Sequence record: OL770073.2
Direction: 5' to 3' (one strand)
Length of the DNA stretch: 64,000 nucleotides
DNA from: Escherichia phage vB_EcoM-RPN226
Numbering within the stretch: position 1 is the first letter of the stretch; each line of letters starts with the position of its first letter. The translations under genes and the position numbers were made by a program. This document shows positions 31,450 through 39,670 of the stretch, one piece after another. The notes under the pieces were generated by a model that was given only the letters and a program-made list of their open reading frames with translations, was not told where the DNA came from and searched no databases.

Positions 31450-31722
31450 ATGAAAACTTTCAAAGAATTTATCAATGAAGCTGCTTTTAACGAAAAAGTA
31501 AAAATTAGCAAAGCTGTCAAGACTATGATTGATAACATCAATTACCTATATGGTATTGATTTAACTGACTATGTAACAGTTGGTAACAAACGTAACTATT
31601 TCGTGTTTGACATCTCTGAACTTGACCAGAATCAAATTAACAACATTGAGCGTTTTGCTAATGATAAGGGTCTTCGACACGAGCCTGGTGGCTATAAAAA
31701 ATACGCAATTTATTTAAAATGA
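31450..31722 (+). CDS. internal-protein-like head protein with capsid targeting sequence (IPI locus)
   Basis: N-terminus MKTFKEFINEA matches the T4 IP leader MKTYQEFIAE with gp21 cleavage site after I-N-E; sits next to 57B where T4 carries ipI. Confidence 0.65.
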   Translation: MKTFKEFINEAAFNEKVKISKAVKTMIDNINYLYGIDLTDYVTVGNKRNYFVFDISELDQNQINNIERFANDKGLRHEPGGYKKYAIYLK

Positions 31723-31753
31723 GTTTACTTTTAGATGGGGTAGTGATACTATT
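31723..31753 (+). promoter_or_regulatory. T4-type early promoter with imperfect dyad over the -10
   Basis: GTTTAC...GATGGGGTAGTGATACTATTACCCTATC; near-duplicate of promoter at 31389. Confidence 0.6.
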
Positions 31754-31780
31754 ACCCTATCAACTACAGAGGAGAATAAA

Positions 31781-31963
31781 ATGAAACGTTGTGAATTAAT
31801 TCGAAATGTTGCTATTGCAATTTCTGCTTCCGCTTTTAGTTTTTCAATGTTTGTTGGATTTATATGCGGATTATTAACTACAGCAGAAAATGTGTTTTCA
31901 CTTGTAGTAGCATTTTTAATTGGTTTAATCGCTATCGTTATGGATAAAATTTCTAAAGGTTAA
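31781..31963 (+). CDS. small hydrophobic (membrane) protein
   Basis: 60 aa ORF with two hydrophobic helices, preceded by GAGGAG RBS. Confidence 0.55.
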   Translation: MKRCELIRNVAIAISASAFSFSMFVGFICGLLTTAENVFSLVVAFLIGLIAIVMDKISKG

Positions 31964-31965
31964 TA

Positions 31966-32253
31966 ATGATTCTTTATGCGAAAGTATCGTCCGTTGAAAA
32001 TGGATATAAATATGATCAAGATGCGGCTAAAGCCTTGATTGATGATTATGGCATTTTAACATGTTTTGAAGTTGAAAAGGTTTACATTGACCGTTCATCT
32101 TCTCAAGTTAAATTAGTAAAGGAAGACCGTAAATTTAATACAGTAAATTTTGATTTCTTTATTGAAACAGAAAAAGGTCCTCTTGAATATGATATTTTCA
32201 AGAATCCTTTGGGTCTTGAATGCATCGTAAATATGTATTATCATAAATGGTAA
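31966..32253 (+). CDS. hypothetical protein
   Basis: 95 aa ORF immediately after previous stop. Confidence 0.5.
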   Translation: MILYAKVSSVENGYKYDQDAAKALIDDYGILTCFEVEKVYIDRSSSQVKLVKEDRKFNTVNFDFFIETEKGPLEYDIFKNPLGLECIVNMYYHKW

Positions 32254-32350
32254 ATATGCTTTAAGAATTATTTGTTATTATTAACTCATATCGCACTGAT
32301 TAATACCCTCTATCATCAAGGGTTCTTGCTTGAGAGCCTTTGTTAATAAT

Positions 32351-32423
32351 TGGGAATTAGCCAAGTTGGTAAGGCATAGCACTTTGACTGCTAGATGCAA
32401 AGGTTCGAGTCCTTTATTCCCAG
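32351..32423 (+). tRNA. tRNA-Gln (anticodon UUG)
   Basis: Manual fold: acceptor TGGGAAT/ATTCCCA, anticodon loop CTTTGAC, T-arm AAAGG-TTCGAGT-CCTTT. Confidence 0.85.
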
Positions 32424-32424
32424 C

Positions 32425-32511
32425 GCGAGAATGGTCAAATTGGTAAAGGCACAGCACTTAAAATGCTGCGGAATGATTTCCTTGTGGGTTCGAGTCCCAC
32501 TTCTCGTACCA
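32425..32511 (+). tRNA. tRNA-Leu (anticodon UAA), long variable arm, encoded CCA
   Basis: Acceptor GCGAGAA/TTCTCGT, anticodon TAA, T-loop GGTTCGAGTCC, 3' ACCA. Confidence 0.85.
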
Positions 32512-32517
32512 AAGTTT

Positions 32518-32588
32518 GCGGATATCGTATAATGGTATTACCTCAGACTTCCAATCTGATGATGTGAGTTCGATTCTCATTATCCGCT
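32518..32588 (+). tRNA. tRNA-Gly (anticodon UCC)
   Basis: Acceptor GCGGATA/TATCCGC, anticodon loop with TCC, T-loop GTTCGATTC. Confidence 0.85.
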
Positions 32589-32601
32589 CAAATTTAATTT
32601 A

Positions 32602-32675
32602 CTCCGTGTAGCTCAGTTTGGTAGAGCGTCTGCTTTGGGAGCAGAATGTCGCAGGTTCAAATCCTGCCGCGGAGA
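32602..32675 (+). tRNA. tRNA-Pro (anticodon UGG)
   Basis: Acceptor CTCCGTG/CGCGGAG, anticodon TGG, T-loop GGTTCAAATCC. Confidence 0.85.
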
Positions 32676-32677
32676 CT

Positions 32678-32764
32678 GGAGGCGTGGCAGAGTGGTTTAA
32701 TGCACCGGTCTTGAAAACCGGCAGTCGCTCCGGCGACTCATAGGTTCAAATCCTATCGCCTCCG
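32678..32764 (+). tRNA. tRNA-Ser (anticodon UGA), long variable arm
   Basis: Acceptor GGAGGCG/CGCCTCC, anticodon TGA, T-loop GGTTCAAATCC. Confidence 0.85.
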
Positions 32765-37659: not shown

Positions 37660-38096
37660 AAACATTATCAGCTGGTATTATCTTTATGACAGAAGATAAA
37701 GATTTATTTATGGGTCGGGTTACTGGTTCTCGTAAGCCTGGAATGATGGCACATCGCTGGGATATTCCAAAGGGCCATGTAGAAAATTCTGATTTAAGCG
37801 CATTAGATGCAGCACGAAGAGAATGTTTAGAAGAGACTGGTTTTAACAATTATAATCCAGGCCTTCTAGAAGACCTAGGTGTATTTAAATATTCTAGTAA
37901 TAAAGACTTACAGTTATTTTATTATACGATTCCAGTAGAGCATGAGATGTTTAGAAATTGCCATTGCGAGTCTTATTTTGAAAATAAAGATGGTGTTATG
38001 ATTCCAGAGATGGATGCTTTTGCTCTTATTCCTCGTACCCAGTGGCAATATGTGATGGGTCCTTCACTTTATCGAATAATGAACAGCCTCTTTTAA
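37656..38096 (+). CDS. nudE: Nudix hydrolase
   Basis: Nudix-box-like GHVENSDLSALDAARRECLEETGF; position upstream of e as in T4. Confidence 0.75.
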   Translation: MKTLSAGIIFMTEDKDLFMGRVTGSRKPGMMAHRWDIPKGHVENSDLSALDAARRECLEETGFNNYNPGLLEDLGVFKYSSNKDLQLFYYTIPVEHEMFRNCHCESYFENKDGVMIPEMDAFALIPRTQWQYVMGPSLYRIMNSLF

Positions 38097-38098
38097 TT

Positions 38099-38106
38099 TA
38101 TAAATA
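38099..38106 (+). promoter_or_regulatory. late promoter TATAAATA (gene e)
   Basis: Exact TATAAATA upstream of lysozyme gene. Confidence 0.6.
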
Positions 38107-38111
38107 CCTTC

Positions 38112-38119
38112 TATAAATA
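38112..38119 (+). promoter_or_regulatory. second late promoter TATAAATA (gene e)
   Basis: Exact TATAAATA 14 nt upstream of lysozyme ATG, followed by GGAGG RBS. Confidence 0.6.
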
Positions 38120-38132
38120 CTTAGGAGGTATT

Positions 38133-38621
38133 ATGAATATATTTGAAATGTTACGTATAGATGAAGGTCTTAGACTTAAAATCTATAAAGACACAGAAGG
38201 TTATTACACTATTGGCATTGGTCATTTGCTTACCAAAAGTCCATCACTTAGTGTTGCCAAATCTGAATTAGATAAAGCTATTGGGCGTAAATGCAACGGT
38301 ACAATTACCCTTGATGAGGCTGAAAAACTCTTTAATCAGGATGTTGATGCTGCTGTTCGCGGAATCTTGGGTAATGCTAAACTTAAACCGGTATATGATT
38401 CTTTAGATGCGGTTCGTCGTTGTGCTTTAATTAACATGGTCTTCCAAATGGGTGTAGCAGGTGTGGCCGGGTTCACTAACTCTTTACGTATGCTTCAACA
38501 GAAACGTTGGGATGATGCGGCAGTAAATCTAGCCCAATCTAAATGGTATCGTCAGACACCTAATCGCGCGAAACGCGTGATCTCAACATTTAAAACAGGA
38601 ACTTGGAAAGCGTATATATGA
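38133..38621 (+). CDS. e: endolysin (T4-type lysozyme)
   Basis: 162 aa [33 protein letters not shown]...; close to but clearly not identical with T4 lysozyme as recalled. Confidence 0.95.
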
Positions 38622-38899
38622 AAACATATAGTGAATTTTTATCAGAATCTATTCTTAACGAAGCTACTGACACATTTGCAACTAAGCTAGGTGCAGCTTT
38701 GGTTGAAGCTGAAAGTCTATTAGCACGTATTTCTGAACTTGCTAGTAAGATAGATACTCGCAAATTTGAACGTACCAGCGATATTGTTAAGCTTGAAGCC
38801 TTGTTGCGTATGTGCGATAAACCAGAAGAAATCGCTAAGAACGGCTCGCTAATGAAACAGCGTCTTGAAAAATATATTTCAGGCGCTTCAGAAAAATAG
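38618..38899 (+). CDS. internal-protein-like head protein with capsid targeting sequence
   Basis: Start at ATG overlapping e stop (ATGA); N-terminus [16 protein letters not shown]; about 93 aa, similar in size to T4 IPII. Confidence 0.6.
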
Positions 38900-38900
38900 T

Positions 38901-38931
38901 GTTTACTTCCTCCAAGGACTTTGATACTATA
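38901..38931 (+). promoter_or_regulatory. T4-type early promoter
   Basis: GTTTAC...17 bp...GATACTAT. Confidence 0.55.
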
Positions 38932-38957
38932 CATTCATCAACTACTTGGAGGAAATT

Positions 38958-39032
38958 ATGACTCGTATCAATTTAACAACTTCAGAATTATTTCTGGTGG
39001 TAAGGCTTAAACAGTTTACGCTTAAGTATTAA
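38958..39032 (+). pseudogene. denV: truncated remnant of endonuclease V gene (denV)
   Basis: 24-codon ORF MTRINLTTSELFLVVRLKQFTLKY; first 11 residues resemble the recalled T4 DenV N-terminus MTRINLTLVSEL, then diverges and stops. Confidence 0.5.
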
Positions 39033-39043
39033 TATGATATAAT
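39014..39043 (+). promoter_or_regulatory. T4-type early promoter embedded in denV remnant
   Basis: GTTTAC...18 bp...TGATATAAT, 30 nt upstream of next gene. Confidence 0.55.
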
Positions 39044-39073
39044 TACTCTATCAAAACAAACAAGGAAACAAAA

Positions 39074-39670
39074 ATGAAAACGTATCAAGAATTTATCGCC
39101 GAAGCTTCTGTAGGAAAGGTCCAAGGCATTAATAAAGATGAGTGGACTTACCGAGGAAACGGCTTTGACAACCCAGGAAACGGCTTTGACCCTAAAACAG
39201 CCCCTATTGAACGGTATTTAGCTACAAAGGCTTCCGACTTTAAAGCTTTCGCCTGGAAAGGACTTCGCTGGCGTACCGACCTAAATATTGAAGTTGACGG
39301 ACTTAAATTTGCTCATATTGAAGATGTTGTTGCTAGTAACTTGGACGCAGCTTTTGTTAAAGCTGACTTTGACCTTCGTCGCTGGAATTTAAAACTGTTC
39401 TCTAAACAGAAAGGTCCTGTGTTTGTGCCTAAAGCTGGTAAATGGGTTATTGATAATAAATTAGCTAAGGCTGTCAACTACGCTGGTCTTGAATTCGCCA
39501 AGCACAAATCATCATGGAAAGGTCTTGATGCAATGGCTTTCCGTAAAGAATTTGCCGATGTTATGGCTAAAGGCGGCTTTAAGGCAGAAATAGACACCTC
39601 TAAAGGTATGTTTAAGGACGCTAATGTTCAGTACGCTTATGCCGTTGCTAATGCAGCCCGTGGTAATTAA
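39074..39670 (+). CDS. internal-protein-like head protein with capsid targeting sequence (IPIII-like size)
   Basis: N-terminus MKTYQEFIAEA matches the recalled T4 IP leader exactly; 198 aa. Confidence 0.7.
   Translation: MKTYQEFIAEASVGKVQGINKDEWTYRGNGFDNPGNGFDPKTAPIERYLATKASDFKAFAWKGLRWRTDLNIEVDGLKFAHIEDVVASNLDAAFVKADFDLRRWNLKLFSKQKGPVFVPKAGKWVIDNKLAKAVNYAGLEFAKHKSSWKGLDAMAFRKEFADVMAKGGFKAEIDTSKGMFKDANVQYAYAVANAARGN

Follow-up and report, generated by a model that had tools for sequence, protein, structure and literature searches.

Introduction

Internal proteins (IPs) of T-even phages enter the cell with the DNA, which makes them the only proteins that the phage can deploy as countermeasures until expression of its genes begins. 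Here we describe a stretch of 64,000 nucleotides from Escherichia phage vB_EcoM-RPN226 (sequence record OL770073.2; the window, below) in which four open reading frames (ORFs) begin with the capsid-targeting sequence (CTS) of the T4 IPs, and we concentrate on the one at position 34103, a candidate new internal protein. Phages with more than three IPs, and IP loci that are hypervariable, have reportedly been described since Repoila 1994, so that four such genes against the three of T4, a difference that a preliminary description of the window had pointed out, are no novelty in themselves.

T-even phages are now credited with 'at least 10' Ips, named Ip1 to Ip10, three of which, Ip1, Ip2 and Ip3, act as inhibitors of one GmrSD type IV enzyme each, a different one in every case (Silas et al. 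2025). The view of IPI* as an anti-restriction protein, on which the preliminary description drew, is thus published. The same authors proposed GmrSD variants as the target of every gene in 'the two Ip loci' (Silas et al. 2025). IPIII is required on ECOR17 and is functional without its CTS when expressed by the host (Srikant et al. 2022). Among these proteins the GmrSD inhibitors IPI* and IPII of T4 resemble those of the window in leader, processing logic and similar mature size and charge, with IPI as the paradigm for how they would act. Since this published work already covers an injected anti-restriction role, the interpretation given in the preliminary description is the published one.

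Two further systems are comparable. The CTS protein Bas37_0260, whose gene lies at the ipI locus, is an inhibitor of McrBC but does not inhibit GmrSD (HIDEN-SEQ preprint 2025). As a small CTS-bearing protein that is encoded in a T-even accessory locus and acts against type IV restriction, it is a precedent for calling new CTS proteins anti-defence. We considered whether it was one of the four proteins of the window and rejected this, as the sequences are unrelated; its mature sequence is absent from the window, and Bas37 carries in addition a 34103 homologue, bas37_0244, annotated hypothetical. The ejection (inner-body) proteins of phiKZ-like phages and SPN3US also lie inside the head, are cut after Glu by a gp21-related prohead protease and are ejected into the host. 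They are large and have different propeptides, and the likeness is one of description, with no sequence relationship expected.

Four open reading frames share the T4 capsid-targeting leader

CTS-type starts are present at ORFs 31450 (90 amino acids (aa), MKTFKEFINEAAFNE), 34103 (157 aa, MKSYAQFLNEVALNE), 38618 (93 aa) and 39074 (198 aa, MKTYQEFIAEASVGK):

31450..31722, + strand: Ip9 internal protein, 90 aa; phrog_7673 'internal head protein', E=5e-54; leader MKTFKEFINE, predicted gp21 cut after E10
34103..34576, + strand: CTS-bearing protein, 157 aa, unannotated; phrog_2280 'unknown function'; RB32ORF133c family; leader MKSYAQFLNE/VALNE with two [LI]xE sites
38618..38899, + strand: Ip5-related internal head protein, 93 aa, RB69ORF127c family; phrog_3499, E=1e-46; leader followed by SILNE
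39074..39670, + strand: IPIII orthologue, 198 aa; 179/198 residues (90%) identical to T4 IPIII, E=5e-132; phrog_5341, E=3e-114

A six-frame scan of the whole 64 kb for the motif MK[TS][YF].[EQ]F[ILVT].[EST] returned exactly four sites, which are the starts of these ORFs. Residue composition predicts 0.00046 such sites by chance, and none appeared in 200 residue shuffles. The claim that four ORFs carry the leader is thereby confirmed, as is its similarity to T4 IPI, IPII and IPIII, which align with the ORFs over the leader; only 39074 matches over its full length, to IPIII. Y/F4, F7, I/L8 and E10 are present in 4/4 leaders. Mutagenesis of the IPIII CTS assigned residues 4 and 7 to targeting and residues 8 and 10 to processing (summarised in PMC9026906). 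Past the leader, pairwise comparison of the four proteins detected no similarity, in agreement with the preliminary description.

Processing sites end at residue 10 in each protein (INE in 31450, LNE in 34103, LSE in 38618 and IAE in 39074), and ORFs 34103 and 38618 have an additional LNE ending at residue 15. We predicted gp21 cuts by a simple [LI]xE rule, which yields the known 76-residue IPI* when applied to T4 IPI. The predicted mature forms would comprise 80 aa for Ip9, 142-147 aa for 34103, 78-83 aa for 38618 and 188 aa for IPIII. Their predicted masses of 8.6-20.9 kDa and pI values of 6.3-9.6, depending on the choice of cut (8.1-9.6 after the last [LI]xE), are near those of the T4 IPs.

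Three of the four proteins (31450, 38618 and 39074) fall in PHROG families annotated 'internal head protein'; Pfam and NCBIfam gave no match for any of the four, and a sequence search against solved structures found no relative for any of them. Profile searches placed three proteins in annotated internal-head families, and 34103 received neither a fold nor a function from the profile and structure searches. The same three ORFs lie inside the two recognised Ip loci (57B/trna.4 and downstream of e), and 34103 lies outside them. Location is a habit of the IP family and not a mechanistic requirement, and 34103 shows that searches have to be based on the leader, not on the locus, if all CTS genes are to be found.

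The mature domains are less uniformly divergent than first described: 39074 is 90% identical to T4 IPIII over its full length, whereas the match of 31450 to T4 IPI is indeed restricted to the leader. The idea that the four are candidate injected anti-defence cargo agrees with the published view of IPs, but its novelty was overstated, since only 34103 is unannotated. For the most part the result is a correct rediscovery of textbook T-even biology, with three of the four genes already catalogued as IPs; 34103 is the sole new element among the four leader genes.

The 34103 family, a candidate new internal protein

ORF 34103 is 84% identical to RB32ORF133c, and its leader makes this protein a candidate new internal protein. 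By tblastn the family occurs in 511 phage records and is 'hypothetical' in all among the matches listed; likewise, 57/57 named cluster members are labelled hypothetical or uncharacterised. The family spans at least three genera, and homologues are carried by Bas40, Bas42 and Bas45 as well as Bas37. An exhaustive profile (hidden Markov model) search of 1.84 billion representatives returned 11 proteins, all of them small T4-like phage proteins or chimeric fragments. A weak match of the 34103 profile to a repeat protein (P0114) was dismissed. We also considered Ip4 of T2 and RB32, which likewise has 157 aa, and rejected it because the alignment covers residues 1-14 only. The family is probably not among the ip1-10 genes that have been screened, a comparison that left out Ip6, Ip8 and Ip10.

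Divergent relatives from Mosigvirus, Jiaodavirus and metagenomic sources, at 30-48% identity, keep x-x-[YF]-x-E-F-[LV]-x-E or a downstream (I/L)xE. Retention of the leader at this distance argues for selection on it. In the AlphaFold model a K/P/A-rich linker joins a helical N-domain (residues 18-75) to a helical hairpin, and the mean pLDDT is 73, with values of 82-92 in the confidently modelled N-domain; Klebsiella homologues have only the N-domain in common with 34103. Comparison of the model with the PDB gave no match (best E=1.7, TM ~0.2), and comparison with a viral structure library retrieved only the family itself and one uncharacterised protein of Serratia phage PS2.

Several relatives are rearranged (P0006-P0011). 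They include frameshifts after AQEK, 5' truncations and an N-domain fused to the C-terminal part of NudE, and one of them has only the last 31 residues, joined to an unrelated N-terminal part. These forms indicate frequent decay and module exchange in the family.

Cassette structure at the rnaC/e.8 slot

ORF 34103 is contained in a 557-bp insertion, relative to T4, between rnaC and e.8. T4 has one hairpin and no gene at this position, that is, an empty site. The insertion has the following boundaries and promoter:

34024..34058, + strand: terminator hairpin copy 1, 35 nt; bounds the 34103 cassette on the left; 3' end of rnaC
34056..34063, + strand: late-promoter box TATAAATA, exact T4 type, 47 nt upstream of the 34103 ATG
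34581..34615, + strand: terminator hairpin copy 2, 35 nt; bounds the 34103 cassette on the right; 89% identity between the two copies

The cassette thus reads TATAAATA, ribosome-binding site (RBS), CTS ORF and second terminator, flanked by the duplicated hairpin, and the RB32 record notes a matching '34 bp imperfect direct repeat'. The layout of terminator, TATAAATA and leader ORF is also present in Bas37 and in Klebsiella Jiaodavirus KP01, and in Mosigvirus the box at the cassette of the 34103 homologue is AATAAATA. Bas37 (KarlGJung) has two cassettes in tandem in this slot; the second, bas37_0243 (L013:7029-7592), encodes a 187-aa protein with the leader MKTYAEFLTEAAKLP that is otherwise unrelated and is annotated hypothetical. 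It has its own AATAAATA box and terminator.

Opinion is evenly balanced, in our assessment, on whether rnaC/e.8 is a third, unrecognised IP-cassette hotspot in the Tevenvirinae, with the 34103 family as a new class of packaged, injected effectors that would combine a conserved helical N-domain with an exchangeable C-terminal module and act against a host defence for which no phage inhibitor is known. Recent work has paired one type IV enzyme with each T4 IP and proposed an arms race for both Ip loci. An unannotated CTS family at a third locus, in hundreds of therapeutic-candidate or model phages (several of them in the BASEL collection), lengthens the list of anti-restriction candidates.

Ip9 in the ipI slot

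ORF 31450 is 88% identical to RB32 Ip9 and 86% identical to RB15 Ip9 (Q38376), with the same length, and resembles the Ip9 of RB15, K3 and RB32 (86-88% identity, 90 aa) also in its locus beside 57B. It fills the slot of T4 ipI between 57B and trna.4, and its match to T4 IPI is confined to the leader. The upstream region is shared with T4:

31391..31419, + strand: sigma-70/T4-early-type promoter-like site (TTTACA-17-TACTAT) with 5' untranslated region (5'UTR), upstream of the Ip9 gene; near-identical to the T4 ipI upstream region

Window and T4 are nearly identical in the promoter, the 5'UTR and the opening ~30 nt of the ORF, the DNA of the mature domain is unrelated, and similarity returns at a second promoter-RBS-ATGAAA copy before trna.4. 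The flanks of the Ip9 cassette (31388-31455 and 31725-31790) are copies of one promoter-RBS-ATGAAA element (..GTTTAC..GTAGTGATACTATTACC..AGGA.AATAAAATGAAA). The RB32 record lists 43-bp direct repeats around Ip7 and Ip9. Given the repeats that flank the cassettes here and at rnaC/e.8, both hotspots use short flanking direct repeats.

RB32 has Ip5, Ip9 and Ip7 in tandem, whereas the window has Ip9 alone. The leaders also differ: RB32 Ip9 has MKTYQEFISEAA, whereas the window Ip9 has MKTFKEFINEAA, the variant found on RB32 Ip7. Leaders have therefore been exchanged between genes.

The mature domain of Ip9 (~residues 19-90) also occurs as a leaderless, stand-alone ORF of 72 aa in Kagunavirus siphophages, where the alignment begins right after the leader. 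An Ip9-like domain (phrog_7673, E=3e-8) is further present near the C-terminus of hypothetical proteins of 964 and 1124 aa, in Kuttervirus (allotria_82, L010:5794-8688) and in phage LHE287 (L014:88-3462), whose genes adjoin 'structural protein' genes. The N-termini of these large proteins, MAIPSFLNFLEE.. and MSKLSFLQFMQE.. (IPSFLNFLEE, KLSFLQFMQE), are followed by QLDEA and have an aromatic residue, Phe, Leu/Met and Glu spaced as in the CTS. The spacing suggests that a large cargo protein of Ackermannviridae-like phages is targeted to the head by a CTS-type signal. Since the Ip9 domain is found with a leader, without one and within large proteins, it is a portable module with different delivery modes. 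Its fold is a generic alpha/beta sandwich, and the structure search gave no informative match.

In Kagunavirus vB_EcoS_UTEC10 the copy (L007:2504-2722, ~50% identity) is the first in a block of small hypothetical ORFs that is divergent from the helicase/replication genes.

Ip5-related and IPIII genes around lysozyme gene e

The two remaining leader genes lie downstream of the lysozyme gene, in the order e, Ip5-like gene, ipIII, vs.8; this order differs from that of T4, and ipII and denV are both missing from the entire window. The first of them, 38618, starts at an ATG within a longer TTG-initiated ORF and is 48% identical to RB32 Ip5 (84 residues) and 47.6% identical to T2 Ip5. It belongs to a 93-aa cluster that includes RB69ORF127c; an identical protein is found on 541 contigs, and its UniRef/RefSeq name is 'internal head protein'. 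It therefore resembles both RB69ORF127c and the Ip5 of T2, T6 and RB32. Ip5 proper differs in its position, the ipI locus, and in its leader of 15 residues, which is IPI-like (MKTFKEFATKTTITE), whereas 38618 directly follows e and has an IPIII-like leader. Two features link it to the gene upstream:

38133..38621, + strand: lysozyme gene e; stop codon overlaps the ATG of 38618 (ATGA)
38099..38119, + strand: two TATAAATA late-promoter boxes upstream of e, as in T4

The late boxes of e probably also serve 38618, which would be translationally coupled to it. The C-terminus of the window lysozyme (..GTWKAYI*; 38590-38621) appears to differ from the C-terminus of T4 lysozyme. Together these features suggest that the junction of the IP cassette lies inside the end of e and that e and 38618 are translationally coupled.

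ORF 39074 shares with T4 IPIII (Ip3) 90% identity over the full length, the same 10-residue CTS and the same neighbourhood downstream of e; its leader MKTYQEFIAE is identical to that of T4 IPIII and IPII. It differs by a 6-residue insertion near the mature N-terminus, and the inserted residues resemble a tandem duplication (RGNGFDNPGNGFDP; T4 has RSGNGFDP). By orthology to T4 Ip3, the target of 39074 would be a GmrSD system like that of ECOR17. The gene is bounded as follows:

39015..39043, + strand: promoter-like site of early type before the IPIII gene (TTTACG-17-TATAAT; TG present)
39673..39690, both strands: hairpin after the IPIII gene, a terminator-scan match on either strand

The Ip9 and IPIII genes of the window thus have only early-type promoter-like sites (motif matches only), as do T4 ipI and ipIII.

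Proposed mode of action and competing explanations

The window also contains genes for the machinery on which the leader would depend:

1..150, - strand: first 50 codons of the prohead protease gene 21 (MNEPQLLIE...), the remainder lying outside the window; the enzyme expected to cut the leaders
150..817, - strand: prohead core genes 68 (150-575) and 67 (575-817); phrog_1049 and phrog_1064; their products form part of the scaffolding core, the binding partner of the CTS

The 50-aa gp21 fragment has no PHROG match at E<=1e-5, and its LIE ending at residue 9 matches the published N-terminal site of gp21. Portal gene 20 also lies at the left end of the window, and gene 22 lies outside it. With the start of gene 21 and genes 67, 68 and 20 in the window, one and the same genome encodes both the leaders and the machinery that acts on them.

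We consider it likely that all four ORFs encode internal proteins of the T4 type that work by a T4-like route of packaging, injection and anti-restriction. In this scheme, which is known for the T4 IPs, the first 10-15 residues of the precursor would serve as CTS and bind the prohead scaffolding core (gp22/gp67/gp68), and the gp21 prohead protease would cut the leader off after (I/L)-x-E. The small, basic mature IP would then be retained in the DNA-filled head and injected together with the DNA. In the cytoplasm, the mature domain would act as a dedicated inhibitor of a modification-dependent type IV nuclease (GmrSD- or McrBC-type) that would otherwise cut the glucosyl-hydroxymethylcytosine (glucosyl-hmC) genome.

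Several observations weigh against this assignment. ORF 34103 lies outside the two published Ip loci. The window contains 17 copies of TATAAATA against 10.7 +/- 3.7 expected, which is not above chance, and the promoters of T4 ipI, ipII and ipIII are of the early GTTTAC type, with no late box closer than 130 nt; what gives the box before 34103 its weight is therefore its position and conservation alone, and a late promoter lends support without being characteristic of the family. Frameshifted, truncated and fused alleles of 34103 are common, so the gene is dispensable. The structural models of 34103 and Ip9 yielded no functional clue, a literature search found no mention of the 34103 family, and the literature searched on T4-like coliphages contained no virion proteomics or N-terminal sequencing for the source phage or this family. 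As to the targets, the genes ip4-ip10, among which Ip9 and Ip5 would fall by name, showed no reproducible inhibition of 15 GmrSD groups (Silas et al. 2025), so that a GmrSD target is only putative for the non-T4 IPs. Finally, the mature domain of Ip9 is found leaderless in Kagunavirus siphophages; its activity is therefore independent of packaging and may not concern glucosyl-hmC restriction.

One alternative is that 34103 is not packaged at all, its leader being a recombination relic from an ip gene, and that the protein acts late in the infected cell, for example in DNA or head metabolism. Its position outside the recognised loci fits this, as do its promoter type, unlike that of the T4 ip genes, and the demonstrated movement of leaders between T-even genes. 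Moreover, 34103 was never annotated as an IP, even where annotators named Ip4, Ip5, Ip7 and Ip9 in the same genome. However, a relic leader should decay, and Y/F4, F7, L/V8 and (I/L)xE persist at 30-48% mature identity and across genera; the neighbouring Bas37 cassette (bas37_0243) bears a leader too, and the predicted mature form of 34103 is small and basic like known IPs. We therefore regard a relic as quite improbable. It is also unlikely, in our view, that IPs are chiefly structural or physical agents (in DNA charge neutralisation, head assembly or ejection) whose mature diversity is largely neutral drift. Each T4 IP is present in ~300 copies, these proteins bind to DNA when the salt concentration is low, internal-protein lysines touch DNA phosphates, and most predicted mature forms in the window are basic; IPIII mutants assemble heads more slowly and have a burst of ~40% of normal, and GmrSD inhibition was not seen with ip4-10. 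Yet triple IP-null T4 grows on laboratory hosts, each of Ip1, Ip2 and Ip3 has a specific restriction target, and IPIII can complement from the host cytoplasm without its CTS. The retention of the Ip9 domain as a leaderless gene in siphophages likewise speaks for an activity that resides in the folded domain. Structural and anti-defence roles are not mutually exclusive.

A narrower question is what the three non-IPIII proteins would act on. They may be injected effectors with targets other than GmrSD, either McrBC-type or other nucleases or defences unrelated to DNA modification, a reading that we hold possible though somewhat doubtful. The example of Bas37_0260, a CTS protein of the ipI locus that hits McrBC and not GmrSD, points in this direction, as do the negative results of ip4-10 on the 15 groups and the homologues of the Ip9 domain in Kagunavirus and Ackermannviridae-type phages, which are unrelated to T-evens. 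On the other hand, all three T4 IPs with known targets act on GmrSD variants, and the diversity of GmrSD far exceeds the 15 groups that were screened.

Genome context and further observations

The window belongs to a Tequatrovirus, and its 9-kb region has ~95% DNA identity to many Tequatrovirus (T4-like) genomes. Gene order is collinear with the reversed T4 map, running through 3, 1, 57A and 57B, the ipI slot, then trna.4, trna.2 and eight tRNAs, and continuing with segB, rnaD/rnaC, the genes e.8 to e.3, nudE, e, the ip genes and vs.8. A tblastn search of the 64-kb window found none of denV, ipI and ipII (beyond the leader), e.2, trna.3 and e.7. The position of e.7 is taken by an ORF of 176 aa (35137-35667; phrog_6869), similar to an RB69ORF146c-type gene recorded in RB32.

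Two homing endonuclease-like genes were observed. As in T4, a segB-like GIY-YIG homing endonuclease gene (32964-33629) lies within the tRNA cluster, between tRNA-Met(cat) and tRNA-Arg. An ORF of 214 aa (3074-3718, - strand) lies between tail-tube gene 19 and sheath gene 18, where T4 has no gene, and, judged by eye, has the look of an HNH-type homing endonuclease (..QLDHKVSIKYGF..NLEIITWESNREKSKR..). At vs.8 (39736-40387), two overlapping matches to T4 in different frames (39736-39831 and 39800-40384) suggest a frameshifted or split gene, comparable to the T2 annotation.

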